Positions 8,084 through 58,890 of a stretch of 64,000 bases of DNA are shown piece by piece. Position 1 is the stretch's first letter; each line of letters opens with the position of its first letter. The stretch is from an uncultured virus (IMG/VR IMGVR_UViG_3300046524_000185) (taxonomy: Duplodnaviria > Heunggongvirae > Uroviricota > Caudoviricetes). Location: IMG/VR virus record IMGVR_UViG_3300046524_000185; one strand, given 5' to 3'. A model generated the notes under the pieces. The model did no database searches. It saw only the letters and a program-made list of their open reading frames with translations, and was not told the origin of the DNA. Both the position numbers and the translations under genes were made by a program.

Positions 8084-8187
8084 ACGGGAACTCCAATTGG
8101 TTCCCGTAAATATGGTTACAGTGGCTGGAGGATTCCCGTTCCGGTTGACTCAGAACGGTTCAGTTTGAAGGTTATAAGGGCTGGGCG

Positions 8188-8238
8188 AAACCTTATAACG
8201 GATAATCGGAAAGGCTTAAACCTTATGACGGATAATCG
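8188..8238 (+). repeat. Two 21-bp direct repeats AAACCTTAT(A/G)ACGGATAATCG with 30-bp period
   Basis: Copies at 8188-8208 and 8218-8238; the second runs into the dif-like site. Confidence 0.8.
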
Positions 8239-8260
8239 CATAGGTTCTGTTATGGAACCG
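8233..8260 (+). other. dif-like XerC/XerD recombination site
   Basis: TAATCGCATAG-GTTCTG-TTATGGAACCG: 11-6-11 layout, arms resembling the rhizobial dif as recalled (TAATCGCATAA-N6-TTATGGAAC). Confidence 0.72.
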
Positions 8261-8407
8261 ATGCACCGAATAGTTGTTCAAATTTTTCCCTGATCATCTT
8301 AATCAGAAACTCGCTTCCGGACAGTCCATAGGTGTCGGCCAGGACCGCGAGCTTCTCGCGATCCTCGTCCGTGCCATACGCGATGATGCCTTTGTTTCGG
8401 GTCTTGC

Positions 8408-8788
8408 TCACCAGGCTATCTCCGTTGCTGCTTCGATTGCGGCTGGTGTTGTCGCTGCGGCCACAAGATCCTTGGCCACCATGCGTTTGTCTTCGATCAT
8501 AGGTCCGACGACACGCCAGCTCTCGGCCATAGTGAGAATGACAGCCGCGGCGTCCAGGAGCGTGACGTTGTATCGCTCAGCGTCGATCGCCACTAGGCGG
8601 ACCAGGTTCGGGTTTATGTTCGGGTCCGCGCAAACCGTCTCTGCTTGGCGTTCCTTCTCCAGGTAGGTCATGGCCTGACCGGCGCCGAGCGTGATGTACC
8701 TTCCACGTGCGAGCTCGGCTGCAGCATCGATCTTGGCGATCGCCGCGGCGCGGATCGGAGTCAGATCCTTCTTCAGATTAAGCTTCAT
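8408..8788 (-). CDS. Tail fibre assembly-like protein
   Basis: Helical Ala-rich protein (IDAAAE.AR..Y..GQAMTY.EK..QA) at the end of the tail operon. Confidence 0.55.
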   Translation of the reverse strand: MKLNLKKDLTPIRAAAIAKIDAAAELARGRYITLGAGQAMTYLEKERQAETVCADPNINPNLVRLVAIDAERYNVTLLDAAAVILTMAESWRVVGPMIEDKRMVAKDLVAAATTPAAIEAATEIAW

Positions 8789-9341
8789 CGATCGTCACCT
8801 TCACGTAGCGTTCCATGTACGGCCACTTCTCGAGCACGATGTTGTAGGTCGCCGGCATCTCGGCCTCGAGCTCGAGCTCGCCACCGGTCAGGATAGTGGG
8901 ATCGCGGTCCACCCAAACGTTGCAAGGATCCGGCAAGCCAGTCAGCTTGACAGTCTCACCGACCTTGAGATTGATTTCGGCAGGTACATCGAACTTCGGC
9001 CGTGCCGTGATCTGTCCATCCAGAATGTAGTCGCTCTCAATGGCACACTTCACGGATTCCAGACGACCGGTGATGACTATCTGCTGCTCGAAGGTGTCGA
9101 CTACCTGCTCGCCCAGCTCATCGACGACGGGCTGACCTTCAGCGTCGATCCTTGGAATCTGGACCGTCTCCATGATGGGCTGGCCCGTTGTGGGGTCGAC
9201 GGCGCCGATGTCAGGCAGGGCCACTGGAGGGAAATCCAAGTAGGGTCGCCCCTGCTCCTCGAAAGCGGCATGAATGTCGGGGGAGACTGGATCCCAGATG
9301 GCGTGAGTGATCCGGCCGTCAGGTAAGTGTTCGATAATCAT
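8778..9341 (-). CDS. Tail-associated hypothetical protein
   Basis: Start reassigned to MIIEHLPDG, overlapping the upstream stop; lies in the tail operon. Confidence 0.55.
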   Translation of the reverse strand: MIIEHLPDGRITHAIWDPVSPDIHAAFEEQGRPYLDFPPVALPDIGAVDPTTGQPIMETVQIPRIDAEGQPVVDELGEQVVDTFEQQIVITGRLESVKCAIESDYILDGQITARPKFDVPAEINLKVGETVKLTGLPDPCNVWVDRDPTILTGGELELEAEMPATYNIVLEKWPYMERYVKVTIDEA

Positions 9342-9715
9342 ACAGCGTAATCCCAAATGAAGTAGCCCATGTAGATCGGTCCCCAGGTGCCCGCGTAGAG
9401 TTCCAGCCGATCGTTGAAAACTTGTGCAACCCCGTTCAATCCCAGGGTCAAATCGTTGAACTGCAAATACATCCATTGATAACCCAACTCGGCCGAGTTG
9501 AAGTTGTACGGGACGGTTACCTGGGGGATTCGAGAGAAGGTCTTGCCAAAAGGGATGACGGTCGTCCCGGTGACGTAGACCTTGCCCGAGATGAGCAGCG
9601 TCATTGCTGACCAATCAGACGAGAAGTTCAGGTTTACATTTGCAGCACTCAGCACGTCCATGCCTGGACGTGATACCTTCAAACCCTCATTGCTGAGCAG
9701 CACACGATTAGGCAA
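9338..9715 (-). CDS. Minor tail-tip protein, paralog 3
   Basis: Probable TTG start giving MPNRVLLSNEGLKVSRPGMDV, the same N-terminal motif as the two upstream genes. Confidence 0.55.
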   Translation of the reverse strand: MPNRVLLSNEGLKVSRPGMDVLSAANVNLNFSSDWSAMTLLISGKVYVTGTTVIPFGKTFSRIPQVTVPYNFNSAELGYQWMYLQFNDLTLGLNGVAQVFNDRLELYAGTWGPIYMGYFIWDYAV

Positions 9716-10109
9716 CGGCGGGCAAGCTCCAAACTCGATAGCGGATATATCTCTGGGCCGCACTGCCTGCGGGGGTGAAGCGATTGCCCAGGCTTCCATC
9801 ACCACCGTTAGGTGATTGGATGAAATAGATTTGAGTCCAACTCAGATACTGGCAAACAACCTCGTACCAACCGACGCTCTCGAACTCGACGACGGGCTTG
9901 AAGCCAAGGTTCGGAATGTTCACGACGGTTGGTGTGAAGCCACCGGCGGTTTGAGGAATGACCCCACTCTGGACCACCTGCACCATCTTGGTGTCGACCC
10001 GAAGCAGAAAGTCGCTGTCCAGTGTGGCGGTCTGAACTTCCTTGCCAGGTTTGGTGATCCACAATCCATATTCAGTGCCCCGCTTACCGAGGAGGACGCG
10101 ACCTACCAT
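9708..10109 (-). CDS. Minor tail-tip protein, paralog 2
   Basis: MVGRVLLG..GLWITKPGKEV; TAATG coupling to the upstream gene. Confidence 0.6.
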   Translation of the reverse strand: MVGRVLLGKRGTEYGLWITKPGKEVQTATLDSDFLLRVDTKMVQVVQSGVIPQTAGGFTPTVVNIPNLGFKPVVEFESVGWYEVVCQYLSWTQIYFIQSPNGGDGSLGNRFTPAGSAAQRYIRYRVWSLPAVA

Positions 10110-10558
10110 TACGGTTTCACAATCCAGTAGTCGAACCATCCGTACGTGCGGGTGACTCGATCAGGAGGATACCAGGCGGCTGTGGCACCAAATCCCAAGG
10201 TCTTGCCTGTGGCGTCATAGCCTCCAGAAGAGAAGAGGCCACCGATCTGGGCCTGACCGATTATATCGTTGCTGAAGTTGCAACGTGGCGCGACAACCAT
10301 GGTGGGGAGCTCGTTCGCATCCCAGCTGCCGCCTAGATAGATTGGTGAGGCCCCGAACCAGGACCATCCGACCATGTCGGCCCATTCCAGGAGACCTTGG
10401 ACAGTTCCCTGGGAAAGGACACGCATGGCGGTGAAGTAACGGCTATCGAAGGCCAGCTGCTCCTTGGTCAGGGCAGGATCGAGAACATTGTAACCTGGCT
10501 TGGAGGCTCTTAGGACATATGTGCCTTCGAAGGCGCCGAGGATAATTCTGTTGGTCAT
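10109..10558 (-). CDS. Minor tail-tip protein, paralog 1
   Basis: MTNRIILG..VLRASKPGYNV; directly follows the J-like gene. Confidence 0.6.
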   Translation of the reverse strand: MTNRIILGAFEGTYVLRASKPGYNVLDPALTKEQLAFDSRYFTAMRVLSQGTVQGLLEWADMVGWSWFGASPIYLGGSWDANELPTMVVAPRCNFSNDIIGQAQIGGLFSSGGYDATGKTLGFGATAAWYPPDRVTRTYGWFDYWIVKP

Positions 10559-13500
10559 TAGTCCGCGATTAGAATCCTGGTGTTGTCGAGCTCGATCCGC
10601 ATCTTGTTGTTTGCCGATCGAGCCACGCCCGCGGTCAAATCACCCATGTTTGCGGTGACGGTCGATAGTGAAGACACACTTAGTTTCGCAGCGGTGACAG
10701 ATCCAGCCGCGAGCTCCTCTGCAGTGACGCTTCCTGCATCAAGATGATTCGTTTTGATGGCGTTGTCCGAGATCTCCGTCGCGCCGAGAGCCAGTGGAGT
10801 GCCGAAGACTTCGGTGACTGTGAAGATCGAGCGGTTGCCAGACTTGTCGACGGCTCGAGCCCAGACCCAATACTTGACGCCAGCCAGCAGGCCGACGATC
10901 ACACCACGGGTGCCTGAAGCATTGCCGCCGAACGTGGACGTCGTCACGTCGTTGACCGTATTGGTGAACAGCTCAATGTACGAGATATCGGAGTCGGACG
11001 GATTCACCCAGTTGGCGACCAGGATCTTGAAGCCAGGTGCGACCGACAGGCTTGTCGGAGGTTCCGGCGGAATCTCGTCACCCACGCCACCGCTCGGAAG
11101 CGGGATCTCGAGCATCATCTGGTTGCCGAAGTTGAGATCGGAATCGTCCTCGAACAAGTCGTAGAACGCCAGCTTGAAGTACCAGGTGTTGTCGGCCTCG
11201 AGCGGGATCGCGACGTTGTTGTTCGGTCCCTTGTAGACGAGGTTGCTGTCATCTGGCGTGAAGCTGTCCGTCAATGAGGCATGGACCACGACGCCGCGGA
11301 AGTCGCGGATCGGCGGCACGTCATAATGGACGACGGCAGCTTCGTAGAGAACCTCGACGCTCTGGGTGGCAGGAGCTGCCGGTGCATCGTTCTTGACGGC
11401 CAGTGTGACGAAGTCGGACCTGAACCCGAACTGGTCCTCGGTCGCGATGGCGATCTTGAAGGCACGACGAGGCGTTCCACCGCCGTCGTTCATATTGACC
11501 GTGTACTCGTAGGTGTACCACGTGCGGTCGAGGATTTCCTCGCGGATCACGAGATCGCTCAGATCGCGGATCTGCATGATGTACTGCTTGAAATAGTCGT
11601 CCTTCGATGCACCCCATTGGAAGAGCGGCGAACGGCTTTCGAAGTCCGTCTCGGTCGGCTCGTCGATCATCCGGAGACCGGCGATCCCGTCTACCACGCG
11701 GGTGTCGCCAATCAGGCGGTGCTCGATAATGGCCGCTGCAGAAGCGTAGCCGTTCACGTCGACAGCCGTCACCTCGAAATAATATTCGCCGGCCGGAATG
11801 TCGTCCCACTCAAACTGGGGGACCGGGACTTCGCCAAGCAGCGCGATTGGGCCGTTGTCTCGCGAGCCAGAGATCTTGTATTTGGTGACGGTCTTCGTCG
11901 GGCTCGGGTTCCAGGCCAGGGTGAGTGTCGTGACCTTGCGGGCGCCAACGGAGCGGCTGGTCGCCCTCACCTTCAGATCCGTGATAGGTTCGGGCTTCTT
12001 CTTCTGATCTAGGACGTACTTATCCAGGTCATCGATCGAACCAATGTAGCCGTCGACGTAGAGCCACTTGGCTCGGTTCATCTGCATGGCCTGGATTTCG
12101 ACGTTGTCCGGATCGCCGTCCACTTCCGTGATCGACATGACGCGGAACGCGAGCGGTGCCACATCACCATTCATCTGGGAGATGGTGAAGACGGCGTCGT
12201 CCGGAAGATCCGGCAAGTCCACAGTGGTCGTCAGAGCGGTCACAGCGCCCGTGACATTGGTCAGCTCGCGGCTGTCCATCACGAAGTCGCCAGTCGCCTC
12301 GCTGATCCGCTGGAAGCCCACCTGGTAGGAGTAGCCAGGTTCGAGGAAGAGTGGGTCGCGGAGATTGATCGTCCGCTTGCCGGTCACACTCTTCACACGT
12401 CCGCTGAGGCCAGCTTCCATGTCCTCATCCGCGACGGTGATAACATCATACGGCGTGAGATAGAGACCCATGCGGTTGGTCTTGAAGTTGACCATCATGG
12501 TCTCGGTCGTGCCGGTGATCAGATGATACCGAGCGCGGCGGATCGCTTCTTCTTCGTCGGTGCAGGCGATCGCTTCGAAGTTGAACGGGATGCGACCGTA
12601 CTTATTAATATGGTCCTGGTCGTAGACACGACGGCGGTCGTCCTGCCAGCCCAGGTTCTCATTCGTGAACGTGACCGTCAGATCGTTGTGGCGGGTCGAG
12701 ATCTCGGTGAACGAGTACGTGAAAAGTCCGTCGACAACGTTCTCAGGCGTGAAGGCCACGGCGGGATTGAGATCGCGGTCAATCTTGATGACGCCCTGAC
12801 CATTGCCGTCGTCAAAGAAACGGCCGGCGAAGATGCCGCAAATGTAATTGATGGTGTCGCGGCCACCCTTCGGGTCCGAGATCAAACCGTTGAAGGTGAA
12901 GCGGGGTTTCCCAGACGCCGTTCGCGTGTCGCACCAGACGCCAGCGTCATAGACATCCCACTTGTCGATCACGATCGGGTAGTAGGCATTCATGCCATAC
13001 CGGTCGTTCAGCACAACATCGTTGGCGACGAAGGCTGGGTTGTTCGTGTAGGCGAGCTTCCAGGTGCCGTCCCAGACCCCGGTGTAGACACGGGTCGTCG
13101 AGTTGTAGTTGGACGGAACACGAACGATGCGGCCGAGGTAAATGCCTGAGAAATCCGGGATCGACGAGAACTGCTCGCTCGCTCGAGCGATCACCTGGGT
13201 GCAGGCGAGACCCGGGAACTTGTAGTTCTTCGCGGTCACCTCCTGGAACGACTCCCAGGTGATGCTGAAGAAGTTCTCCGTCGTATCGATCGGAGAGGTC
13301 TTGGTGACGCGGAACATGTAGGGCTCGTTGGCCCGAGCGACCGGGATGCGGAGCTCTTTCGGGAACGGTTGAGTGGTCTTCGCGGTGATCGCGATTTCAC
13401 CATTCGTCAGGACGACGTCACCGCCGGTCCCGTTCTCACCGAAGGTACCAGGACGGAGCGAGGATCCCGCCTGGATCCAGCTCGAGCCGTTGAAGAAGTA

Positions 13501-14364
13501 TGGACGCTGGGCGCCCGTGTGCAGCCAGTAGTCGCCTTGCTCAGGAGCGAAGCCGAGTTGCGGGCCGACGAATGCTCTGGTGGCCCGATCGCCTCCCCAT
13601 GAGGAAGCCTCGGACCAGGTCCAGCGATTGCTCGCGAAGTAGAGACCGGCTGGGAAATACCAGTTATATCCGTCCCAGATCTTTGGCTTATAGTTGTTCG
13701 AGGTGTCGAACCAGATGCCAGCGTTGGCCGTCGTGATCGGCTGCGATGGTGCCCAGTAAGTCGGCCGATCACCTGGAGAGGCGTTGATCTTTGCCGGTGT
13801 TCCACCAGTCCCATAATAGATGTCGAAGCTGTCGCCAGAGATTTGCGGCGGGAGTGGATTGACGCTCGGCGTCCGGACGGGTTCCCAATACTGGCCACTG
13901 ACGAGTTTGTGTTCGATGCGCCAGCGGCCGGTGTGATTAAAGGTGCCCTTGTCGTTCTGCGTCACCAGCTGGTTGATGACGAAGCGCAAATCAATGTAGT
14001 CGATGTCCGTATGGGTGCCCTGCCGGATGATAGCGACGTTGGGTGCCATCTCGGTGTTGACCGTGGTGGACGCGCCGAAGCCACCAAGACGGGAGTAGAT
14101 CTCCTCCCCCTGCTCGCTTCCTTTGTAGTCGACGAGCTCGAAGTTTTCGAAGTTGTTGGAGCCGCTGTCGTCCTGGAGTTGGGTCTCACCGACCAGGTAG
14201 GATTTGGCGCCGTTCTCCAGACCTTTGATTGGGCCTTCGCTGATGCCCAAAAGTGCTTCGACCACATCGGTCGCGAAAAGGGAGTCGGCTGTCTGTTTAG
14301 GACTGGAACTAGATCCTCCCTTCGAACCGCTAAGTTTCCGAAGGGAGATATCTTGAATTGTCAT
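10558..14364 (-). CDS. Tail tip / host specificity protein (lambda gpJ-like) with FN3 domains
   Basis: 1268 aa; ISEGPIKGL, YTGVWDGTWK.AYTNNPA, PRFTFNG motifs; FN3-like WARAVDKSGNRS. Confidence 0.9.
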   Translation of the reverse strand: MTIQDISLRKLSGSKGGSSSSPKQTADSLFATDVVEALLGISEGPIKGLENGAKSYLVGETQLQDDSGSNNFENFELVDYKGSEQGEEIYSRLGGFGASTTVNTEMAPNVAIIRQGTHTDIDYIDLRFVINQLVTQNDKGTFNHTGRWRIEHKLVSGQYWEPVRTPSVNPLPPQISGDSFDIYYGTGGTPAKINASPGDRPTYWAPSQPITTANAGIWFDTSNNYKPKIWDGYNWYFPAGLYFASNRWTWSEASSWGGDRATRAFVGPQLGFAPEQGDYWLHTGAQRPYFFNGSSWIQAGSSLRPGTFGENGTGGDVVLTNGEIAITAKTTQPFPKELRIPVARANEPYMFRVTKTSPIDTTENFFSITWESFQEVTAKNYKFPGLACTQVIARASEQFSSIPDFSGIYLGRIVRVPSNYNSTTRVYTGVWDGTWKLAYTNNPAFVANDVVLNDRYGMNAYYPIVIDKWDVYDAGVWCDTRTASGKPRFTFNGLISDPKGGRDTINYICGIFAGRFFDDGNGQGVIKIDRDLNPAVAFTPENVVDGLFTYSFTEISTRHNDLTVTFTNENLGWQDDRRRVYDQDHINKYGRIPFNFEAIACTDEEEAIRRARYHLITGTTETMMVNFKTNRMGLYLTPYDVITVADEDMEAGLSGRVKSVTGKRTINLRDPLFLEPGYSYQVGFQRISEATGDFVMDSRELTNVTGAVTALTTTVDLPDLPDDAVFTISQMNGDVAPLAFRVMSITEVDGDPDNVEIQAMQMNRAKWLYVDGYIGSIDDLDKYVLDQKKKPEPITDLKVRATSRSVGARKVTTLTLAWNPSPTKTVTKYKISGSRDNGPIALLGEVPVPQFEWDDIPAGEYYFEVTAVDVNGYASAAAIIEHRLIGDTRVVDGIAGLRMIDEPTETDFESRSPLFQWGASKDDYFKQYIMQIRDLSDLVIREEILDRTWYTYEYTVNMNDGGGTPRRAFKIAIATEDQFGFRSDFVTLAVKNDAPAAPATQSVEVLYEAAVVHYDVPPIRDFRGVVVHASLTDSFTPDDSNLVYKGPNNNVAIPLEADNTWYFKLAFYDLFEDDSDLNFGNQMMLEIPLPSGGVGDEIPPEPPTSLSVAPGFKILVANWVNPSDSDISYIELFTNTVNDVTTSTFGGNASGTRGVIVGLLAGVKYWVWARAVDKSGNRSIFTVTEVFGTPLALGATEISDNAIKTNHLDAGSVTAEELAAGSVTAAKLSVSSLSTVTANMGDLTAGVARSANNKMRIELDNTRILIAD

Positions 14365-14405
14365 AGACTTATCCGGCGTTTCTTATGTACCGGTTTAAGT
14401 GGGGA

Positions 14406-15443
14406 TTAATGAGCTGTTTTTCCAGAGCGCCAGCGGTTCTGCATCCACTTCAGACGCTCGGCTGCTTCACCAGGATCAAACTCGAAACGGATGAAGTTCA
14501 TCTCGCTCGTCGCGTAGGGATCGATGAGTGCCACAGGGCAATTGTAGAGATCCTTGGCGTCGAGGTTCAGCTCCTCGGCGTAGCGGTCAATCTTCTTGTA
14601 CGAGGCGACCTGGAGAGCGTGCCAGATCTGCGAGGATGATGGACGCATGCCATGGGCATAACCCGAGGTGTGGATGTGGCCGGCGACGTAGATGTCGTGG
14701 TGATCGCCGTCGAGCTGAGCTGCCTTCGCAGCACCATAGGACTCCGACCACATGGACTTACCGCGGAACCCGTGGACCGAATAGATCTTCACGTCACGTC
14801 CGTTGGGCAGCTGCAGCTGCAGACGAACCTTGTTCGACTTGTGGACCAGAGCGTTGTTCGCGAGGATGTGCTTCAGGATGTCGCCACCCTGCCCCCACAG
14901 ATCGTGGTTGCCGTCCGTGTAATAGAGCCAGTCGATCTTCTGGAGAACGTACTCGACCAGTGCCAGGGCTTCGTCCGCCGAGGTGCTCTGTTCCGAGTAG
15001 AGACGAGCCAGACGGCCAGCCCAGTTGTTGAAGACGTCACCGACGTTGGCCGCATATAGACCTTCATTCCGGCCGTCGAAGAGATTGACGTGCTCGAGCA
15101 CCTGGGCCAGGTCTGTGCCATCGTCGTCCAGGTGCATGTCACCGAAGAAGCCAATGCCGATTGGGCCGTCGCGCTTGACGCGAACCGGGATGATTTTCTC
15201 CCGCTCGAATTTCTCCCGCTTCTGAGCGAACTGGTTGATGCGGCGCTCGACCAGGGCTTCGATGTCGATCGAGGGTTTTGGCTCGTCGACAAGCTCGAAG
15301 TCGCTGTCGTCCCAGCGTTTCTTCATCCCACGGATGCCAGACTCGGAGATGTCGTAGCCCTGCTCCCGCAGATAGCGAGCGGCGGGTCTGAAGCCCCCCG
15401 TCATGCCAACTGCCTGCTTGATGAGGTCTTCAGATGGACGCAT
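14406..15443 (-). CDS. Calcineurin-like metallophosphoesterase with possible N-terminal HTH
   Basis: GDMH, GDVFN, GNHD, HG and GHIH motifs in canonical order. Confidence 0.85.
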   Translation of the reverse strand: MRPSEDLIKQAVGMTGGFRPAARYLREQGYDISESGIRGMKKRWDDSDFELVDEPKPSIDIEALVERRINQFAQKREKFEREKIIPVRVKRDGPIGIGFFGDMHLDDDGTDLAQVLEHVNLFDGRNEGLYAANVGDVFNNWAGRLARLYSEQSTSADEALALVEYVLQKIDWLYYTDGNHDLWGQGGDILKHILANNALVHKSNKVRLQLQLPNGRDVKIYSVHGFRGKSMWSESYGAAKAAQLDGDHHDIYVAGHIHTSGYAHGMRPSSSQIWHALQVASYKKIDRYAEELNLDAKDLYNCPVALIDPYATSEMNFIRFEFDPGEAAERLKWMQNRWRSGKTAH

Positions 15444-15451
15444 TAGAGATC

Positions 15452-16021
15452 CTATGGTTTGTACTCGATCGCGTTGATATCGAACGACAGGAAGTGTCCG
15501 TAGACGCGGCGCCTGCCGTAGAGGATTGGGATGCGGGTACCGATCGCCACCGTGTTCTTCGGCGTGCCGAGATAGCCGCTCTTTCGCGTGCTATCCCCTT
15601 GCGTGTCGGTCTCAGGCTTCGGGGCCAGGAGTGCTGTCAGGCCTCCGAGTAGGGCCAAGGCACCAACCTTGATCAGAAGCGAGCCGACGAGCGAGCCAGC
15701 GCCCAGCATAAGGCCGACGCCGACAAGTACAACGCCGAGGAGGATCTGAAGCAGACCACCCTTCTTGCCACCGCTCAGCTGCGGGACGATATGGATGAAT
15801 TCGACGTCGGGCTCGATCGGCGTGTGGAGGGACTCCTCCGTATCAAAGCCGACAATCTTGATGCGATGGCGACCACGAACGGGGTCAGGCTGGAAGCCTT
15901 TGACCTGGCGTGTGACACCTTCGATGATGTCCGCGACGGTGTGACCCACCATCTCAATCGGGCCATCATGAAAGGCAGCGAAATAGCCGTGGAGAATGAC
16001 CTTAATCCGCAACGAGAACAT
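15452..16021 (-). CDS. Tail assembly protein I (lambda gpI-like)
   Basis: IHIVPQLSGGK, Gly-rich hydrophobic stretch, NTVAIGTRIPILYGR. True start may be TTG at 16012. Confidence 0.85.
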   Translation of the reverse strand: MFSLRIKVILHGYFAAFHDGPIEMVGHTVADIIEGVTRQVKGFQPDPVRGRHRIKIVGFDTEESLHTPIEPDVEFIHIVPQLSGGKKGGLLQILLGVVLVGVGLMLGAGSLVGSLLIKVGALALLGGLTALLAPKPETDTQGDSTRKSGYLGTPKNTVAIGTRIPILYGRRRVYGHFLSFDINAIEYKP

Positions 16022-16322
16022 CTCCGTCCGCGACCACGTACTTCGTCACACCATCATTGCCGATGATGTAGTGCTCGAGCTCGGGCCAGTTGATGAACGA
16101 ATGGAAGTCGCCGGCAGATAGGTTCGAGTCCTCGCCAGGGTGGGTGTGCCAGCTGGCGGCTGCGACCGGCGTGTAAAGGACGAGATCCTCACCCCGGAAA
16201 TCGAAGCCCTCAGTTGGCTGCTCGCAGATGTTCTCGCACTCGACGATCTCGCCTGTCTTCAGGATGAAACCACAGCGTTCCTTGTCGCCCTCATACAAGT
16301 GGAGAAGTTCGGAGGAAGTCAT
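16002..16322 (-). CDS. JAB/MPN-domain protein (gpK N-terminal half)
   Basis: ERCG..WHTHP..S.GD JAMM motif. Confidence 0.85.
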   Translation of the reverse strand: MTSSELLHLYEGDKERCGFILKTGEIVECENICEQPTEGFDFRGEDLVLYTPVAAASWHTHPGEDSNLSAGDFHSFINWPELEHYIIGNDGVTKYVVADGDVLVAD

Positions 16323-16779
16323 CGAGTTTCCTTTTGACGCTCGGGCTAACAATATCGAGGAGGTTCACAGAGCTCTCGGTCTGCTCGAGTTTGACGTCCT
16401 TGTGACGGAGGACGGCGAGAGTGGTGTTGCGAAGCAGAGCCCGATACGACTCCACGGTCGACAGCCGGCCCCAGAGATGATGAAGCACCTGGCCGTTCTC
16501 GACGAACACACCCACGTGGTTGGCTACGGGAGAGTCGATGCCACAGAGGATCACGTCACCTGGTTGGTATTCGGATGGGTGGCAGTCGAGCAAATAGAAG
16601 CCGCACTTGCGATAGCGGTTCATGTAGAGGTCGAGATCGTTGTTCCAGAAATCCTTCGGGCCAGCGTAGTTGGGTAGCTGAATGCCGAAGTTGTCAGCGT
16701 AGAAGCCGCGGATCAGGTGGTAGCAGTTCTGGTTCTTGTAGCTGAACGGTCGGTGCAGCAGGTGCTCATATTTCAACAT
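16291..16779 (-). CDS. NlpC/P60-domain protein (gpK C-terminal half)
   Basis: NCY, PGDVIL, NHVGVF, LHH motifs. Confidence 0.85.
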   Translation of the reverse strand: MLKYEHLLHRPFSYKNQNCYHLIRGFYADNFGIQLPNYAGPKDFWNNDLDLYMNRYRKCGFYLLDCHPSEYQPGDVILCGIDSPVANHVGVFVENGQVLHHLWGRLSTVESYRALLRNTTLAVLRHKDVKLEQTESSVNLLDIVSPSVKRKLDDFLRTSPLV

Positions 16780-17270
16780 TAGAGCGACACCATCGGGAAC
16801 TCAGGCGGGATGAACATGCGGCACGGAATCTGGAAGTTCGCGCCTTCGGTCATGTTGCGGAGCTCGAGCGAGATGCTCTGTCCGGAGATGAGCTCGCGGA
16901 TGCGGCCGACGTACCACATGCGTTGCTCGAATTTGTTCACATCCTTCTCGACATGATCGCGGAGGACGCGACGACGGATCACGGTGGCCTGGTCGAGCTG
17001 GCCCTTGATCGCGGCCGAGTTAAAGATCCCGAACGGGTTCATGACCTGGAGAATTGGCCGGCTTTCCTCGCCGTCCGCCGATCGAGTGTCGCCGGTCATG
17101 CGTGTGGCCATGCCTTCGTAAAGCTGTCCCTGCCACGTGGTGGTGTTGTCGGTCTTGAAGCGGAAGATGACCGGTTGGTTCTTCAGGATGATCGTGTAGA
17201 GATCGACCAGCGCGTCGGCTGTGAGTTTCTGTGCTTCTTGTTTGTGCTCAAGAGGCGCAGTCGACGTCAT
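16779..17270 (-). CDS. Minor tail protein L-like
   Basis: TWQGQLY, RPIL, ATVIRRR motifs; lies between M-like and K-like genes. Confidence 0.7.
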   Translation of the reverse strand: MTSTAPLEHKQEAQKLTADALVDLYTIILKNQPVIFRFKTDNTTTWQGQLYEGMATRMTGDTRSADGEESRPILQVMNPFGIFNSAAIKGQLDQATVIRRRVLRDHVEKDVNKFEQRMWYVGRIRELISGQSISLELRNMTEGANFQIPCRMFIPPEFPMVSL

Positions 17271-17647
17271 GGCTGGGTCGTGACCTCCATCTCGAAGGAT
17301 TCGACAGTACCTTGACCGTCCTCAGCGACACGGTATTTCAGCGGCTTGCTGAAGCGAACGGTCAAAAGCCCCTTCCCCGGCAAAGGCAGAATGAACTTCT
17401 CGAACAGCTTGTGCTTCAGGTAGAACTCTTCCAGACGAGCGATGTTGATCTTGGGCATGATACCCGTGAGGACACGGCCAGTCTCGTCCGTGTAAAACTT
17501 CATCGTCTTGTAGTGGAGCGTGTACTTTACCTGATCAGGTCCGCGAGGTCTGGCTGCAAATTCATAGCCTCGCCCGAGCTGCACCTTTGGAGAGGACTCT
17601 GGGTATTCCGTTGTCCAGGTGAAGTACGGGAAATCATACGTTTCCAT
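17267..17647 (-). CDS. Minor tail protein M-like (distal tail)
   Basis: VQLGRGYE, LEEFYLKH..F motifs; start METYDF; position after the tape measure gene. Confidence 0.65.
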   Translation of the reverse strand: METYDFPYFTWTTEYPESSPKVQLGRGYEFAARPRGPDQVKYTLHYKTMKFYTDETGRVLTGIMPKINIARLEEFYLKHKLFEKFILPLPGKGLLTVRFSKPLKYRVAEDGQGTVESFEMEVTTQP

Positions 17648-18315
17648 GCGGGTTGATATGGGTTTGATTCCCTTGCAATACAAGGGTTTGCGGTCGCTGC
17701 GCTCTTAGTAGATAAACCTTGAGTATTCGTGGTGCTTTCTTTTTTCCACCCTATCCTCCGCGACAACCAGCCGAGCCACTTCGGGCACAGAAGCCTGATC
17801 AGGTTGAAGTCGTTCTTCTCGCCCTTCCGCTTCTGAATCTTTCGCTCGATCAGCCGCATATCGTGGGCTTTCCGGATCGTCTTCTGAACCATGGATCTCG
17901 AGACAGCCGCACGGGCAGCGATGGCGTCGACGGCGCAACGAATGACAGAGCACTCACCAGCCAGCTTCGCCAATGTTGTGAGGACCGCCTGCTCAGACAT
18001 GGTGAACTGGGTAGCGATCTCCGGAGGAAGAAATCCCGCTGCAACCAGTCCACGACGGCGGGCAATCGACGCCTCCCTCTTCCGGGGCTGTGGCTTCTTC
18101 CGCTCGATCTCGGTGAACACCGTGATGATCCGTTGGTGGATCAGAGTCTGGCGTAGTTTCAGGGCCGCGTCGAGCTGGTGAGCTCGCCGGTCGCTGAGCT
18201 CGCCTTTGTGGTGCTGATCCCAAAGGATCCTCGAGAGATTGGTGCAGACCTGAAGTTTTGTGGCTTTGGAAATAGCACGTTTGAGTTGCAGAGCAACCAA
18301 TAGGTTTCCCGTCAA
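17527..18315 (-). CDS. HTH protein, putative plasmid replication initiator
   Basis: HTH-like DAIAARAAVSRSMVQKTIRKA..LI plus wing RKGEKNDFNLIR; very basic; GAGGT SD before a TTG start; ctRNA-like unit in its leader. Confidence 0.6.
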   Translation of the reverse strand: MTGNLLVALQLKRAISKATKLQVCTNLSRILWDQHHKGELSDRRAHQLDAALKLRQTLIHQRIITVFTEIERKKPQPRKREASIARRRGLVAAGFLPPEIATQFTMSEQAVLTTLAKLAGECSVIRCAVDAIAARAAVSRSMVQKTIRKAHDMRLIERKIQKRKGEKNDFNLIRLLCPKWLGWLSRRIGWKKESTTNTQGLSTKSAATANPCIARESNPYQPAWKRMISRTSPGQRNTQSPLQRCSSGEAMNLQPDLADLIR

Positions 18316-18369
18316 AGCTGTACCTCACTTAGGTATAAGATATCGTTCGAGAAATCGGCAAATTTCCCG

Positions 18370-18472
18370 TTGACACCTGATTCGTTTTATGAGAGCTTTG
18401 ACCTTGTGAAGGGGCTTCAAGAGCTCTCTGAAGGTTTGAACAAGCACTGGGCGGCAACCCGGTGCTTTTTCG
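18370..18472 (+). ncRNA. Putative counter-transcribed antisense RNA (ctRNA) with its promoter and terminator
   Basis: TTGACA-cct-GATTCG promoter resembling repABC ctRNA promoters; terminator AAGCACTGGG-CGGCAA-CCCGGTGCTTTTT; antisense to the Rep-like gene leader. Confidence 0.62.
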
Positions 18473-18625
18473 TTTGTGGGTAAATTACGTCAAGACTCAC
18501 GTCCCCCGTTGCAAATCAGTGATATTGTGGCCTAGTGGTTGAGTCGTGCCAACCCCTGAGCAGAAAACGCGCAGGGGTCCACAGATTAGAATTGTCGATA
18601 GATCGTTAAGGTGCTGTTAAGGGTT

Positions 18626-25020: not shown

Positions 25021-25044
25021 TTGTGATCCAGAGTTACAAACAAT

Positions 25045-51182: not shown

Positions 51183-51183
51183 C

Positions 51184-56392: not shown

Positions 56393-56415
56393 CGCATGAG
56401 CGTTAACGCACGTCA
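56390..56415. repeat. 26-bp element TGACGCATnnGCGTTAACGCACGTCA, copy 1 (centromere/operator candidate)
   Basis: 24/26 identical to 58113-58138. Confidence 0.7.
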
Positions 56416-56537
56416 ACGCGGACTGACCGCCGGACATCGCGGTCAGCCCTACTCCTCGAACCCCTACCCTCGCGGAAGTGACAGACACCTGGCTTGGAGC
56501 CAGGGCCATAACGCCGCCAGGGTGACACGCATTATGA

Positions 56538-56555
56538 TGCGTCAACGTTGACGCA
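56538..56555. repeat. Perfect 18-bp palindrome TGCGTCAACGTTGACGCA
   Basis: Built from the same TGACGCA half-site. Confidence 0.7.
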
Positions 56556-56568
56556 GAAAGGAGAGTTA

Positions 56569-56781
56569 GTGAAAATCAAGAGTATCATCGGTCCTGAACC
56601 CGTTCACAAGCCTGAGTACCCGACCGCATGGGTCATCGATTATGACGGCGTCACCGAGATTCGCGAGACGAACGAGAACCTCGGCACTTACGGGATCACG
56701 TGGTACGAGGTTTACGCCGGTGACAAGCTGGTCGCCAAGATGAACGCCCTGCACACGGCCGAGGTTCGGTACGCTACATAA
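56569..56781 (+). CDS. Hypothetical protein
   Basis: AAGGAG SD, GTG start. Confidence 0.55.
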   Translation: MKIKSIIGPEPVHKPEYPTAWVIDYDGVTEIRETNENLGTYGITWYEVYAGDKLVAKMNALHTAEVRYAT

Positions 56782-56807
56782 TGCGTCAGCGTTAATGTTG
56801 ACGCATT
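56780..56807. repeat. Palindrome AATGCGTCA-N10-TGACGCATT upstream of parA
   Basis: Same half-site, in the parA promoter region. Confidence 0.65.
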
Positions 56808-56893
56808 GTGGAGCATTTTGATGCGTGTTAACGAACCATAAAGCCTTCAGCCGCATCATGATGCTCCAACATTAATCAAAATGAGAGGCGACC

Positions 56894-57568
56894 ATGCCGG
56901 TTATTGCCGTTGCAAACCCGAAGGGTGGGGCAGGGAAGTCGACGACGACCCTCGTTCTTGCCACCACACTGGCCGCTCAGGGTGCCAGCACCATCATTCT
57001 CGACTGTGATCCGAACCAACCAATCACCGGCTGGCGTAGCGGATCGTCGAAGAACGCCGTGATCGTCGACGGCGACGTGAACGAGAGCAACATCACTTCG
57101 AAGCTCGACGAGTACCGAAAGAAATTCCAGTTCGTGTTCGTCGACCTTGAAGGTGTCGCCAGCCGTCTGATGTCGCGAGCACTCGCTCGAGCCCAGCTGG
57201 TGGTCATTCCAATTCAAGCCAGCCCGACCGACGCCGAGCTCGCCGCCAAGGCCATCCGCCTGATCCAGGAAGAGGAGCAGGCATTCGAGAAGCGGATCCC
57301 GTACCAGATCCTGTTCACTCGAACCTCTCCGGTGATCGCCACCAAGCTTGAAAAAGCAATTCTGGCGCAGCTGAGGGGAGGGGAGGTGCCTTCCTTCAAC
57401 AATCACTTGAACGAGCGTGCGGCCTACAAGTCCATGTTCTTCCATCAGCTCGATCTCGACGAGCTCGACCCGCAAGAGGTCAACGGCGTGCCCCAGGCCC
57501 GCGAGAACGCCCTGCGTCTCGCTGAGGAGCTGGTCAACACCGTGGTCCAGAAGCAGGAGGCAGCATGA
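56894..57568 (+). CDS. parA: ParA partition ATPase (short, type Ib)
   Basis: [10 protein letters not shown] deviant Walker A, DCDPN, FVDLEG; no N-terminal HTH. Confidence 0.9.
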
Positions 57569-57852
57569 CTGGCAAGAACCTGGGCTTCAGTGCCCTCGCG
57601 AACATCAAACCCGAGGTCGACGACGCGCCGGCCGTTCCCGATCGCAAGATCGACGAGGTGGCCGAGAAGCATGGTTTCGTCTCCCGCGAGCCGATCCAGA
57701 AGATGAGCCGACGCAAGCCGGCCGAACCTTCGGCCAACCTCAACATCCGACCACCGATCTCGACCTTCAACCGGTTCCTCCAGTTCTGCGAAGAAAACCG
57801 CTACAGCTACCCCGAGGCGCTGAAGGAACTCATGGATAGGGCCAAGATATGA
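57565..57852 (+). CDS. Small partition partner (ParG/RHH-like centromere-binding candidate)
   Basis: ATGA-coupled to parA; flexible N-terminus then ANLNIR strand and two helices. Confidence 0.7.
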
Positions 57853-58145: not shown

Positions 58146-58177
58146 AAGCCCTGGCCCCCGCCGGGGCTTTTTCTTTT
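58146..58177 (+). terminator. Intrinsic terminator
   Basis: AAGCCCTGG...CCGGGGCTTTTTCTTTT. Confidence 0.7.
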
Positions 58178-58187
58178 GGAGAGAGAA

Positions 58188-58448
58188 ATGAACCTCTACT
58201 ACCTGAGCGGAACCAACGAGGAGGGCGAGGACTTCTCGCTGCACGTCGTCGCCCCGAACATGTTCCAGGCCCACGCCATGTGGAAAGAACACTGGGAAGC
58301 GACTTTCTTCCTCGCATCACCAAGCCACGGCTCACCGAACGCCAAGGTCGAGGACAAGCTCCTGATCTACGAGATTGTCTACGAGCCTGACACGGCCGGC
58401 GTCGTCGAGTGGGGCAGGGACGCCATGATCGTGGGATACGTGGAATGA
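58188..58448 (+). CDS. Hypothetical protein
   Basis: GGAGA SD; 86 aa. Confidence 0.55.
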   Translation: MNLYYLSGTNEEGEDFSLHVVAPNMFQAHAMWKEHWEATFFLASPSHGSPNAKVEDKLLIYEIVYEPDTAGVVEWGRDAMIVGYVE

Positions 58449-58609
58449 GATTTGTGATCTGGAACCTGAGCCAGCGGAAGTATGTCGCGCCGCTGGGGTT
58501 GAAATCGAGCTACACCCAGTTCATCCATAAGGCACGAACGTTCCCGACTCGCCAAGCCGCTGAGGCGGATTGCTGCGGCGACGAACGAGTTCGCGAGATT
58601 GACGGCTAA
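58445..58609 (+). CDS. Hypothetical protein
   Basis: ATGA-coupled; SSYT.....AR.F.TR.AAEA..C..E. Confidence 0.5.
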   Translation: MRFVIWNLSQRKYVAPLGLKSSYTQFIHKARTFPTRQAAEADCCGDERVREIDG

Positions 58610-58692
58610 GCAGACGCACCCTGCCAGGTGCATCGGGGAGGATAGGCCACCCCGACCAGGCGAAGGCCTCGCCGTCATTCTGGAGGTGAACT

Positions 58693-58782
58693 ATGTGGTG
58701 GATACCATTTAGTTTCACGCTGACGATAAGGAAAACCCGCACGAGCTGGCAGGCTACCGTGCGGGTGTCATTCCTTAGCTAA
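58693..58782 (+). CDS. 29-aa peptide MWWIPFSFTLTIRKTRTSWQATVRVSFLS, type I toxin-like candidate
   Basis: Strong GGAGGTGA SD; structured flanks; downstream anti-SD at 58818-58826. Too short for the ORF track. Confidence 0.55.
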   Translation: MWWIPFSFTLTIRKTRTSWQATVRVSFLS

Positions 58783-58849
58783 GCAGTAAATGGGAGGCAG
58801 GGTTCGCGCCCTGTCTCTCACTCCAGCTCCCAATATAATCCCCCATCTC

Positions 58850-58880
58850 AGCCCTGACAACTGTCGGGGCTTTTTCTTTT
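58850..58880 (+). terminator. Intrinsic terminator
   Basis: AGCCCTGACA-AC-TGTCGGGGCT-TTTTCTTTT. Confidence 0.7.
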
Positions 58881-58890
58881 GGAGAACCCG

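Follow-up and report, generated by a model that had tools for sequence, protein, structure and literature searches.

Virion, lysis, and replication genes

The window (the whole 64,000-nucleotide stretch analyzed) covers ∼64 of the ∼80.5 kb (∼80%) of a siphophage genome that runs past both window ends. A minus-strand virion module (8250..42055), recognized by Pfam, PHROGs, and synteny, extends from the large terminase TerL (40286-42055) through the portal (38777-40276), major head protein (29138-30325), major tail protein (25099-25899), tail chaperone (24613-25020), and tape measure (18988-24363) to lambda L/K/I/J-like tail tip genes (10558-17270) and fibres. The lysis cassette (7022..8083), also on the minus strand, comprises an endolysin (7022-7600; Phage_lysozyme E = 2.8e-24, phrog_7), a holin-like ORF (7506-7823; weak match to holin phrog_1356), and an ORF of unknown function (7754-8083). 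No small terminase was recognized among the window ORFs by Pfam or PHROGs; with this exception, the full virion and lysis set described in an earlier sequence-only reading of this DNA lies where that reading had placed it. A moron-like 126-aa ORF on the plus strand (18611..18991; phrog_2320, E = 1.5e-8) has a signal-peptide-like N-terminus and no tblastn match in the 80%-related phage G003, the M. suomiense DSM 14458 contig, or plasmid pMaq22A_3p.

A plus-strand gene (42696..45104) encodes a P4-family Prim-Pol/D5_N/DUF5906 primase-helicase (Pfam; TIGR01613 E = 1.3e-39, over that model's cut-off) whose counterparts in pMaq22A_3p and M. suomiense are 39-40% identical to it. A 97%-identical relative also encodes PolA, helicase, ligase, and exonucleases; RNR, ThyX, MazG, and SbcCD are all encoded by the phage or its relative. 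Such a complete replisome and nucleotide-metabolism set is of a kind typical for virulent phages and favors the view that this phage is virulent or pseudolysogenic, its parA cassette, Xer-like site, and winged-helix gene being cargo from host plasmids that have no stable-inheritance role or serve lytic growth (positioning, regulation). The same view is favored by the lack of a recognized repressor: no repressor or lysogeny switch was recognized in the window, and the relative's counterpart of the 16.5 kb outside it has no more than generic ORFs of the HTH_3 and MarR-like types, none recognizable as a repressor. We nevertheless consider a virulent phage unlikely, for reasons that lie in its maintenance modules and its relatives.

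The absence of an integrase from the window was borne out, as no integrase-type family matched any of its 94 ORFs (Pfam). The search of the rest of the genome that had been proposed was likewise negative: none of the 25 ORFs seen in the relative across the 16.5 kb outside the window belonged to an integration-enzyme family, and tyrosine or serine recombinases, protelomerases, and DDE transposases (PF00589, PF00239, PF16684, PF00665) were each found in 0 of 3 records (the near-complete relatives G002, 98% complete, and G003, 100%; and record G001, 78%).

Partition, Xer, and winged-helix modules

The 224-aa Walker-type partition ATPase encoded by parA (56894..57568, plus strand; VirC1/AAA_31/CbiA in Pfam, phrog_164) lacks an N-terminal HTH and matches TIGR03453 only in the P-loop. 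It is 77-79% identical to Rhizobiaceae plasmid ParAs and 63% identical to that of phage AmM-1. Overlapping parA by 4 bp is the gene for a 95-aa ParB/ParG-like partner (57565..57852, plus strand) with 92 homologs, mainly from Rhizobiaceae and several with a plasmid label. Adjacent homologous pairs occur on A. vitis pRvVAT039d, where the 95-aa ORF behind parA is 51% identical to the partner, and on Shinella p4; the G003 counterparts are 87% (ParA) and 74% (partner) identical. Upstream of parA, arrays resembling parS or operators and built of GTYRACGC and GCAT..ATGC repeats (56394..56882) form palindrome and repeat clusters at 56394-56423, 56525-56557, and 56771-56882, flanking a 77-aa ORF (56548-56781). 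Six of the 18 GTYRACGC matches in the window fall in 56400-56804, although the window total is not above chance (13.95 expected). The 16-bp palindrome GCGTCAACGTTGACGC has an identical copy 114 bp upstream of parA in pRvVAT039d, and related arrays lie upstream in Shinella p4 and are present in G003. The operon ends with an 88-aa ORF (57849-58115, plus strand) that has no match in G003, the palindrome GCGTTAACGC (58123-58132), and a plus-strand terminator (58145-58170).

The parA gene, small partner, and palindromes that the sequence-only reading had noted at 56.4-58.1 kb are thus present and resemble Rhizobiaceae plasmid cassettes. As in type Ib systems (ParF/ParG, delta/omega), a small Walker ParA is paired with a small partner whose C-terminus is strand-helix-helix, and short direct and inverted repeats, here a candidate centromere or operator, lie upstream. 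In its AF2 model the N-terminal half of the partner is disordered and the C-terminus appears ribbon-helix-helix-like. However, neither the sequence nor the fold of the partner matches ParG or omega significantly; Foldseek returned only weak rows for ribbon-helix-helix proteins (best E = 4.3, ParG at rank 15). By sequence and comparison, the cassette is plasmid-derived with a type Ib-like arrangement of repeat array, parA, and small partner. The ParA of pMaq22A_3p is only 22% identical to that of the window, and the Methylobacteriaceae relatives, pMaq22A_3p and the M. suomiense contig, both have their non-orthologous ParA in the same genome region. Unlike ParAs apparently in the same role would be expected under selection for partition itself, which argues against simple cargo. 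The ParA search matched 11 records, with the lytic-type relatives Seuss, JWF, and their kin not among them, which fits a plasmid role for the modules.

The dif-like site predicted at 8233 was confirmed as a plus-strand Xer-type site with an 11-6-11 layout (8233..8260) and the core CGCATAG / GTTCTG / TTATGGAACC at 8237-8259. The pattern GCATAR-N6-TTATGGAA matches the window once (8238-8257) against 0.01 expected, with a match in 1 of 100 shuffles. Both arms are shared with the chromosomal dif of 76 of the 81 genomes sampled from the order, and with M. suomiense dif as well. The site has a counterpart at the same place in G003 (63432-63454) and a further copy in the distantly related pMaq22A_3p (61966-61988); dif-like sites adjoin HTH-262 homologs in pMaq22A_3p, pB146-3, and a small M. 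suomiense contig. The 11-6-11 core, host-dif-like arms, and divergent central region are shared with cer/psi plasmid sites and CTX-type attP, and two 20-bp direct repeats on the XerC-arm side (8190-8209 and 8219-8238, plus strand), read from the sequence, are possible accessory sequences comparable to those of cer/psi-type sites. We know of no documented tailed phage with a Xer site of the cer/psi or IMEX type.

Host-like arms, together with a recombinase count of 0 of 3 records, would also suit a temperate phage that has no integrase of its own and whose dif-like attP is used by host XerCD for insertion at the chromosomal dif, as IMEX elements do, the plasmid state being transient or alternative and stabilized by parAB. 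We regard this as quite improbable. The central GTTCTG of the site is unlike the commonest dif central regions seen (GATATA and TATATA), and metagenome contigs from 3 of 4 runs cross the site without loose ends, although rare forms would be hidden in contigs.

Between the tape measure and the tail tip genes, and divergent from the 126-aa ORF, sits the minus-strand gene (17527..18315) for HTH-262, a 262-aa winged-helix protein (phrog_15967, E = 4e-37) from a large, unnamed family (1137 cluster representatives at E≤0.001). Homologs were found on 57 plasmids, and the usual setting of family members is a plasmid, beside parA, and homologs adjoin parA in pB146-3, pMNOD05, phage AmM-1, and the small M. 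suomiense contig. The search in phages matched two records, both AmM-1, and not Seuss, JWF, or their kin. Opposite the HTH-262 leader, a terminator scan located a putative ∼75-nt antisense RNA (18370..18475, plus strand) with TTGACA at 18370-18375, a terminator hairpin with the loop CGGCAA at 18442-18467, and a T-run up to 18475. Its plus-strand promoter fails a sigma-70 scan, and it matched no Rfam family, ctRNA families included. The unit is 80% conserved in G003 despite diverged flanking genes. Its architecture and loop (CGSCAA), with differing stems, recur in G003, AmM-1, and pMaq22A_3p; stems are 10-14 bp in 4 of 4 folded elements (z = −2.8 to −6.7).

The ORF and the hairpin with its T-run (18442-18475) of the proposed Rep-like unit therefore stand, but the "Rep" label is an interpretation. 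The AF2 model of HTH-262 (mean pLDDT 81) shows a helical domain at the N-terminus and a single winged helix rather than a Rep fold, no member of a 66-sequence alignment matched a Rep family in Pfam, and no iterons were found. We consider HTH-262 a candidate plasmid replication or copy-control protein whose Rep role is unproven. Alternatively, HTH-262 and the antisense RNA might form a module for immunity or for the control of lysogeny (a repressor or antirepressor under antisense control), leaving plasmid-state replication to the Prim-Pol/D5 primase-helicase only. This is a possibility that we hold tentatively and with some doubt. It accords with transcription of HTH-262 from its own intergenic region against the late operon, as in prophage-expressed genes, with fold matches that are generic (MarR/CodY-type or MarR/GntR-like winged helices, best E = 1.3e-3), and with the 9.4-kb plasmid pAU20rrn, where an HTH-262 homolog lies next to a separately annotated initiator; P4-family primase-helicases are plasmid replicases in known phage-plasmids. 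The generic fold matches and the separate initiator of pAU20rrn likewise weigh against a Rep role. Against the alternative, HTH-262 homologs adjoin parAB and dif-like sites on many small plasmids free of phage genes, and plasmid initiators are most commonly controlled in just this way, by an antisense RNA whose terminator hairpin lies upstream of the gene.

At 58.7 kb, a conserved 29-codon ORF behind GGAGG (58693-58782, plus strand) faces a convergent promoter-like site (58860-58832, minus strand, 10/12), with a minus-strand hairpin and T-run (58755-58734) and a plus-strand terminator (58850-58871). G002 and G003 retain this ORF at the same length and in frame, with synonymous changes; 19 of 29 residues are identical in G002. 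The small ORF, promoter-like site, and hairpin of a suggested type I toxin locus are thus present, but the conserved 29-aa peptide is not hydrophobic in the manner of such toxins, and an addiction role is doubtful.

Relatives as separate replicons

Cultured Methylobacterium, Methylorubrum, and Rhizobium strains harbor syntenic relatives as separate replicons of 80-86 kb. The 85,702-bp pMaq22A_3p (M. aquaticum MA-22A, NZ_AP014707.1), which was not mentioned in the literature searched, is a circular plasmid, and the ends of the 84,253-bp M. suomiense DSM 14458 contig overlap by 111 bp. Both are syntenic with the virion module and share with the window the order nucleotide metabolism, lysis, tail, head, and TerL, followed by divergent Prim-Pol/D5 and early genes. 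Matches were found for 28 (pMaq22A_3p) and 27 (M. suomiense) of 92 window proteins tested (portal 51-52%, capsid 49-52%, TerL 46%). Both encode a ParA-like protein and a homolog of HTH-262, and pMaq22A_3p also has the dif-like site and antisense hairpin. They are nevertheless distant relatives only, with a ParA of another lineage, and pMaq22A_3p has its dif-like site, HTH-262, and antisense unit together in the early region as a single block, whereas in the window they lie in the late operon. Within Rhizobium, R. ruizarguesonis carries TerL at 87% on an 82,624-bp contig and HTH-262 at 69% on an 83,005-bp contig (two accessions), and Rhizobium sp. Leaf383 carries TerL at 78% and a partner homolog on one 80,450-bp contig. 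The proposed comparison with alphaproteobacterial plasmids was thus positive both for the partition cassette, which matches Rhizobiaceae plasmids, and for the syntenic pMaq22A_3p. The rhizobial host that had been suggested is supported, most likely Rhizobium or a close member of the Rhizobiaceae.

Other relatives are found in larger contigs: one in a 4.29-Mb R. arsenicireducens contig (TerL 78%) and others, at about 55%, in Mesorhizobium and Terrihabitans contigs of 0.2-6 Mb. These favor insertion by host XerCD; however, such relatives may bear an integrase of their own in place of parAB, and the closest isolate relatives are element-sized, one deposited as circular and one with a terminal overlap. 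Some members of the lineage may therefore integrate. Relatives in chromosome-sized contigs also imply that the lineage is temperate, which counts against a virulent phage, as do the circular plasmid or whole-element contigs of at least four cultured strains in three genera and the retention of three modules between the window phage and G003 though many early genes diverged. A virulent phage would require the plasmid-like isolate contigs to represent carrier-state cultures. In its favor, the named phages closest in TerL (Seuss, JWF, and Acinetobacter phages, 39-44%) have no reported lysogeny functions, and coverage in rhizosphere metagenomes is deep. All 24 runs with the phage are such metagenomes (word depths 74-157), and this phage itself is not seen in a lysogen. 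These depths also fit active lytic growth. Seuss, JWF, and the Acinetobacter phages are not reported as temperate, and the Seuss paper mentions no lysogeny genes (PMC4591317).

A probable plasmid prophage among known phage-plasmids

Given its partition cassette, dif-like site, antisense-controlled winged-helix gene, and relatives that are separate circular replicons in isolates, we think it probable that this temperate phage, which lacks an integration enzyme, persists as a circular low-copy plasmid prophage, i.e., a phage-plasmid. Injected, terminally redundant DNA would circularize; ParA and its partner would segregate copies via the repeat arrays, and host XerCD would resolve dimers at the dif-like site. 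The antisense RNA may pair with the HTH-262 mRNA leader and set the amount of the winged-helix protein, which would act as plasmid-state replication initiator or as a copy or maintenance regulator. Lytic replication would be driven by the phage replisome (Prim-Pol/D5 plus PolA, helicase, ligase, and exonucleases), which may serve the plasmid state too. Plasmid lysogeny by unlinked modules rather than repABC, as the sequence-only reading proposed, is accordingly upheld in its partition cassette, Xer site, missing integrase, and separate-replicon relatives but not in its initiator and addiction roles. The maintenance parts are dispersed in the window, yet form one compact block on small plasmids.

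In AmM-1 and the small M. suomiense contig, the order parA, parB, antisense RNA, and DNA-binding gene is that of repABC, where an antisense RNA with a terminator hairpin likewise faces the leader of the last gene; by analogy, the proposed control of HTH-262 would resemble that exerted by the countertranscripts of repABC and other plasmids. Unlike repABC, the window phage has no RepC (RP-C) family match, its ParA is short and not RepA-like, its parts are unlinked, and its antisense RNA is outside the ctRNA families of Rfam. Two siphophages of the R. leguminosarum group, B1VFA and V1VFA-S, have been proposed as prophage-plasmids for their parA, parB, and rep genes, and one is related to a Rhizobium plasmid (PMC12509600). 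They are 118-122 kb long with tRNAs and an annotated repC (PMC12509600), whereas the window lineage is ∼80 kb; neither showed similarity to the window phage in the phage searches.

As here, a siphovirus is paired with a large set of DNA-metabolism genes in SSU5-type elements. Like phage-plasmids of the P1, N15, and SSU5/pHCM2 type, as described in one survey (PMC7969092), the window phage joins a tailed-phage genome to plasmid partition without an integrase, and their combination of a conserved phage core and plasmid genes that can be exchanged has a parallel in the two unrelated ParA types found here. It differs from these groups in that no sequence relation emerged in the searches run, its TerL relatives being Seuss/JWF-like, in apparently using a host Xer site in place of an element-encoded recombinase, and in its dispersed parts, two of them inside the late operon. 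The window phage is thus probably a new lineage of an already known kind of phage-plasmid.

Genome plan, relatives and the search for an integrase

ORF calling was guided by GC3, and when 94 ORFs were scanned against Pfam and PHROGs, phage genes were found to span the window from end to end, with both window ends cutting through genes. The plus strand at 1-7000 carries SbcC-like, dNMP phosphatase, dATP/dGTP diphosphohydrolase, MazG, and small and large RNR subunit genes. The minus strand at 7022-42055 carries lysis genes, a lambda-like tail tip (I, K and L with J, 10558-14364, -), the tape measure (18988-24363, -), a chaperone, major tail, head genes, portal and TerL. The plus strand at 42230-64000 encodes a Prim-Pol/D5 primase-helicase, four DUF6197 paralogs, a peptidase, a glutaredoxin, parA, TerB and the start of RtcB. 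Apart from a small terminase, which was not identified, the Pfam and PHROGs assignments bear out the full virion and lysis gene set described by the sequence-only reading, and packaging genes are present too. There is no tRNA in the window, and no Rfam family reached its gathering score there.

Several genes deserve mention in their own right. A dATP/dGTP diphosphohydrolase N-domain protein and a MazG-like pyrophosphatase adjoin (2190-3002 and 3015-3542); the adenylosuccinate-synthetase family had no match among the scanned ORFs, so nothing points to a modified-base pathway. Between the gpI-like and gpJ-like genes lies a 345-aa ORF (14406-15443, -) matching a PHROG "DNA repair exonuclease" (E=9e-33), an odd place for it; it is 74% identical in G003, a complete related virus record, and has no match in the Methylobacteriaceae relatives. 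Compared with the 97%-identical relatives L001-L004, replacement mainly affects the tail-fibre region (32007-36448, with collagen-like and fibre genes), and host-range switching is suggested. In the early region, the four DUF6197 paralogs (49033-50152 and 52272-52601; E=1e-11 to 1e-13) include three near-tandem copies with a 59-aa ORF between the first two, and the G003 copies are fewer and more divergent. Further on are a 162-aa protein (59385-59873, +) with an RNA polymerase alpha C-terminal-domain-like segment (E=2.7e-7) and a weak PglW model match, which may be a host-transcription modulator; a TAXI/NMT1-like solute-binding-protein homolog (60419-61342, +; phrog_6856, E=2e-61; 74% in G003); and a TerB-like protein (61558-62013, +; 92% in G003).

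Searches of phage and plasmid collections for near-identical DNA gave no useful match, and comparison was made with related IMG/VR records: G001 (the same record as G004; 64,058 bp, 99% identity over window positions 1-10000), G002 (80,553 bp, 98% complete, shared parts 93-100% identical to the window) and G003 (81,516 bp, ~80% identical, ends overlapping by 127 bp). The last 16.5 kb of the phage's genome was read only through a 97%-identical relative; the 16.5 kb of G002 outside the window encodes PolA, a 5'-3' exonuclease, an SNF2-type helicase, an ATP-dependent ligase, ThyX, a RecU-like resolvase, SbcD, the remainder of RtcB and two generic HTH proteins. Six-frame searches of the three IMG/VR records found tyrosine integrase (PF00589) in none of the three, and likewise serine recombinase (PF00239), protelomerase (PF16684) and rve transposase (PF00665) in none of the three. 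Because these four families were missing from all three records, the lack of an integrase first noticed in the window extends to the whole genome, as far as the 97%-identical relative represents the missing 16.5 kb. A search for a lysogeny switch or repressor returned generic HTH proteins only, none of them assignable, and the opposite-strand ORFs of the early region gave one DUF982 match and no repressor. That DUF982 ORF (51792-52181, -; E=1.3e-11) lies on the strand opposite the early genes and is possibly prophage-expressed.

By TerL (39-44% identity), the phage is related to Caulobacter phage Seuss, Achromobacter phage JWF, Pseudoalteromonas KB12-38, Xylophilus phage Lumi and Acinetobacter phages, all with genomes of 77-85 kb. 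Seuss has a terminal repeat of 1,748 bp and its description mentions no lysogeny genes (PMC4591317); Seuss, JWF and the other TerL-related phages gave no match to the ParA of the window or to HTH-262, its 262-aa winged-helix protein. Among bacteria, the Methylobacterium aquaticum MA-22A plasmid pMaq22A_3p (85,702 bp, circular, TerL 46%) is laid out on the same plan, as its annotation and a tblastn comparison show; 28 of the 92 window proteins have a match there. Among species-representative genomes, TerL led to M. suomiense DSM 14458, in which a contig of 84,253 bp has ends overlapping by 111 bp and matches 27 of the 92 proteins, and to M. jeotgali, with a match on a 41-kb contig that starts inside the element. 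In a large protein collection, a TerL relative at 87% was found in R. ruizarguesonis on an 82,624-bp contig, and one at 78% in Rhizobium sp. Leaf383 on an 80,450-bp contig, a length shared by the contig of a homolog of the small protein encoded after parA; others at 55-64% lie on NCBI contigs of 85-88 kb. An HTH-262 homolog at 69% occurs in two R. ruizarguesonis accessions (longest contig 83,005 bp). Relatives are also found on larger contigs: R. arsenicireducens (78%, 4.29 Mb) and Mesorhizobium and Terrihabitans (~55%, 0.2-6 Mb). Among 401 sampled genomes of the order, a TerL relative was seen in one, which was the sample's own centre.

The extrachromosomal state is seen only in relatives, as a circular plasmid record, an end-overlap contig and element-sized contigs in Rhizobium isolates. 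Because relatives occur in isolates on element-sized contigs as well as in chromosome-sized ones, the lineage is probably temperate; the isolate members closest to the phage appear to be replicons of element size, and others appear to be chromosomal. The sequence occurs in 24 sequencing runs, each a rhizosphere metagenome and all from a single year; they are kept as contigs and are silent on lysogens. No mention of pMaq22A_3p or of pAU20rrn, a 9.4-kb plasmid bearing an HTH-262 homolog, was found in the literature searched.

Partition cassette and dif-like site

ParA (56894-57568, +) has 224 aa, with KGGAGKS at residues 9-15, and is of the short Walker type without an N-terminal DNA-binding domain; it matches NF041546 ParA_partition with E=1.4e-32 at 112.9 bits, under the 180-bit cut-off. 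Its 95-aa partner (57565-57852, +) overlaps the end of parA by 4 bp. By tblastn, ParA matched 1479 plasmid records, the best (77-79%) being A. vitis pRvVAT039d, Shinella zoogloeoides p4, an Ochrobactrum plasmid and other Rhizobiaceae replicons, and no close ParA (E<=1e-60) was found in the 401 sampled genomes of the order. Both plasmids inspected have the same 672-bp/288-bp gene pair, with partner identity of 51%, and are ordinary plasmids, one with a relaxase and T4CP and the other with a RepA initiator. Homologs of the partner number 92, mainly in Rhizobium, Agrobacterium, Neorhizobium, Shinella and Ensifer, some of them labelled plasmid. In its AF2 model the N-terminal half is disordered, and residues 57-92 (pLDDT 84-95) form an extended stretch with two helices, the predicted layout of a ribbon-helix-helix monomer; Foldseek gave no row at E<=0.001, and the rows to ribbon-helix-helix proteins were weak, all at E>4, with ParG at rank 15.

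The DNA 5' of parA contains arrays of GTTGACGC, GTTAACGC and GTCAACGC together with GCAT..ATGC units, direct and inverted. In the A. vitis plasmid an identical copy of the perfect palindrome GCGTCAACGTTGACGC precedes parA by 114 bp, and related arrays are also upstream of parA in Shinella p4 and G003. Over the whole window GTYRACGC is not enriched (18 matches against 14 expected); near parA, 6 of the 18 fall inside 405 bp, and two more form a palindrome directly after the operon. We read this locus as a functional plasmid-type centromere with a ParA and small-ParB cassette, for which we infer binding and segregation. The earlier description of parA with a small partner and palindromes is substantiated as a plasmid-type cassette: the plasmid comparison gave 77-79% and 51% identity for the two proteins, and the repeat array is common to two plasmids and G003.

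The dif-like site (8233-8260) proved stronger than at first sight. A 28-base dif consensus of another bacterium had no match within 9 mismatches, as in shuffles, and by that comparison the site looked like chance; only against the host order's own dif does it become convincing. Its core reads CGCATAG / GTTCTG / TTATGGAACC at 8237-8259. A nearly unchanged core, CGCATAA / TTATCT / TTATGGAACC, is present in pMaq22A_3p, and G003 has CGGATAA / TGTATT / TTATGGAACT at the syntenic position. The string GCATAAGATATATTATGGAA was found in both of two Methylobacteriaceae genomes searched, and GCATAA-N6-TTATGGAA, with up to one mismatch allowed, is present in 76 of the 81 genomes sampled from the order, with few matches to a reversed control; its commonest form there is GCATAA[GT]ATATATTATGGAA. 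In this distribution the order-wide pattern behaves as the chromosomal dif does. The window has one match to it against 0.01 expected, and when set against the M. suomiense dif (11-6-11), the window site agrees at 7/11 positions of the XerC-side arm, 9/11 of the XerD-side arm and 3/6 of the central region. Variants lie at the end of, or directly after, the HTH-262 homologs of Methylorubrum sp. B1-46 plasmid pB146-3 and a small M. suomiense contig.

Dimer resolution by XerCD would be the plain reading of such a site. The rival is that it serves as an attachment site. In a further reading, the element would have two integrase-free modes of persistence, as a ParAB-partitioned plasmid and as a substrate of host XerCD, by which the whole 80-kb genome could be inserted at the chromosomal dif. 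If true, XerCD insertion would explain why recombinase-less relatives are seen both as 80-86 kb episomes and in chromosome-sized contigs. Contigs from the sequencing runs X1, X2 and X3 (word depths 12, 157 and 74) cross the dif-like site without loose ends there, which shows the free or episomal arrangement, and rare integrated forms would escape such contigs. We consider the two-mode scheme improbable, and retain dimer resolution as the reading of the site.

HTH-262, its antisense unit and the 58.7-kb locus

The HTH-262 gene (17527-18315, -) and a divergent 126-aa signal-peptide ORF (18611-18991) lie between the tape measure and a gpM-like gene, a place at which pMaq22A_3p has nothing. HTH-262 matches phrog_15967 (E=4e-37) and, weakly, an O-like initiator family (E=3.9e-4), and belongs to a family with 1137 cluster representatives at E<=0.001. 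Homologs are on 57 plasmids of 6-340 kb (35 Methylobacterium, 6 Methylorubrum, 4 Shinella and others), 42 of them non-mobilizable, and the two phage records matched are both Aurantimonas phage AmM-1. Where inspected, the homolog adjoins a parA-parB pair (pB146-3, pMNOD05, the small M. suomiense contig, and AmM-1 as parA, orf34, orf33), and pMaq22A_3p and the 84-kb M. suomiense element have one homolog each, at other positions.

The AF2 model of HTH-262 (pLDDT 81) has a helical N-terminal domain and one winged helix. Foldseek, PDB-profile and Atlas searches returned generic winged-helix regulators, with no profile match to PDB sequences below E=0.07 and Atlas clusters labelled only "hypothetical" or "HTH"; PADLOC gave no match. 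When 66 family members were compared with Pfam, 27 matched GntR and 18 HTH_36, and none matched a Rep family. An iteron-type Rep, with two winged helices and iterons, was considered and rejected, as the model has one winged helix and 17400-19100 contains no repeated units above chance. On pAU20rrn the homolog stands alongside a separately annotated initiator. We hold it possible, if somewhat short of probable, that HTH-262 is a replication initiator; that it is a copy, maintenance or immunity regulator we judge an even call.

On the opposite strand upstream of HTH-262, the antisense unit (18370-18475, +) has a hairpin followed by a T-run, and its block is 80% conserved in G003 despite diverged genes on either side. 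The same feature lies upstream of the homologs in G003, AmM-1 and pMaq22A_3p. The stem is 10-14 bp and differs in sequence by clade, the 6-nt loop is CGGCAA or CGCCAA, and the flanks are CAAA before and a UUUU(C/G) tail after; between the G003 and window hairpins the difference is one inserted base pair. The window, G003 and AmM-1 each have TTGAC(A/T) about 70 nt ahead of the hairpin; pMaq22A_3p has TTGACG. All four antisense units fold as 5' stem-loop(s) plus terminator (z = -2.8 to -6.7); covariation is stated from the four separate folds, MAFFT having set the hairpins out of register. Antisense hairpins with T-runs and other loops were found in pB146-3, the small M. suomiense contig, pAU20rrn, pF and the 84-kb M. 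suomiense element, and no convincing one upstream of the pMNOD05 homolog. Such an architecture is that of a putative countertranscript-controlled plasmid gene. Of the claim of a Rep-like HTH gene with an antisense unit, the antisense architecture stands, and the Rep assignment, with no Rep family match in 66 members and no iterons, stays a candidate one.

The gene order of the AmM-1 block (parA, parB, antisense RNA, gene) parallels that of repABC. The window differs from repABC in that HTH-262 is not RepC-like, neither it nor any of the 66 family members matching the RepC family (RP-C), and in that no described ctRNA family was matched (none of Rfam at E<=10 in 18250-18650). It also differs from the single repABC operon in that parAB, at 56.9 kb, and the HTH gene, at 17.5 kb, stand apart and on opposite strands. 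The proposal of unlinked modules rather than a repABC operon is upheld by these observations. Plasmid pB146-3 (16,127 bp) carries portal, terminase and head-tail connector genes in addition to parA, an HTH-262 homolog and a dif-like site, and may be a small phage-plasmid, a satellite or an incomplete assembly. Because AmM-1 has parA (63%), the partner, the antisense hairpin and the HTH-262 homolog in one block (24880-26924), it may also be a plasmid prophage.

At 58.7 kb, a 29-codon ORF (58693-58782) behind GGAGG keeps its frame and length in G002 and G003, with synonymous changes and 19/29 residues identical to G002. The minus strand has a promoter-like site (10/12) and, inside the ORF, a hairpin with a T-run, from which an antisense RNA of ~95 nt is predicted; the hairpin is identical in three sequences and so offers no covariation. 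The peptide has ~12 hydrophobic N-terminal residues followed by a basic strand-like segment. What had been called a type I toxin-like locus is real and conserved; the toxin label is not supported, the peptide being unlike a membrane toxin. Nearby, GGGGCTTTTTCTTTTGGAG, a terminator tail plus ribosome-binding string, occurs twice, at 58163-58180 and 58866-58883, each time where an early cassette ends, as though a standard terminator-RBS joint marked the limits of small gene cassettes.

A probable heritable replicon among rhizobial phages

Phage-plasmids are well known in enterobacteria and little studied in rhizobia, whose plasmids carry symbiosis and fitness traits. Phage-plasmids as such are an established kind (PMC7969092), and plasmid prophages are documented in Ochrobactrum (PMC5492332). 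A 2025 paper (PMC12509600) put forward rhizobial siphophages carrying parA, parB and repC as prophage-plasmids; those have genomes of 118-122 kb and belong to another lineage than the phage described here. Particular to the latter are its Seuss-like 80-kb genome type; its three maintenance parts, which form one block on small Hyphomicrobiales plasmids and are inserted separately here, two of them in the late operon; and the combination of a host-type Xer site with an undescribed antisense-RNA/winged-helix module.

Rhizosphere metagenomes contain the lineage in abundance, and isolates of Rhizobium, Methylobacterium and Methylorubrum carry it as well. With the addition of three small parts, which are carried as a set on small plasmids found in the same bacteria, a lytic-looking siphophage of the Seuss type appears to have become a heritable replicon. 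A host-type Xer site in a tailed phage is possibly of wider use, and the unnamed winged-helix family, with its 1137 cluster representatives and conserved antisense RNA, may be the sign of a module for plasmid maintenance or replication that has gone unrecognised in the Hyphomicrobiales.
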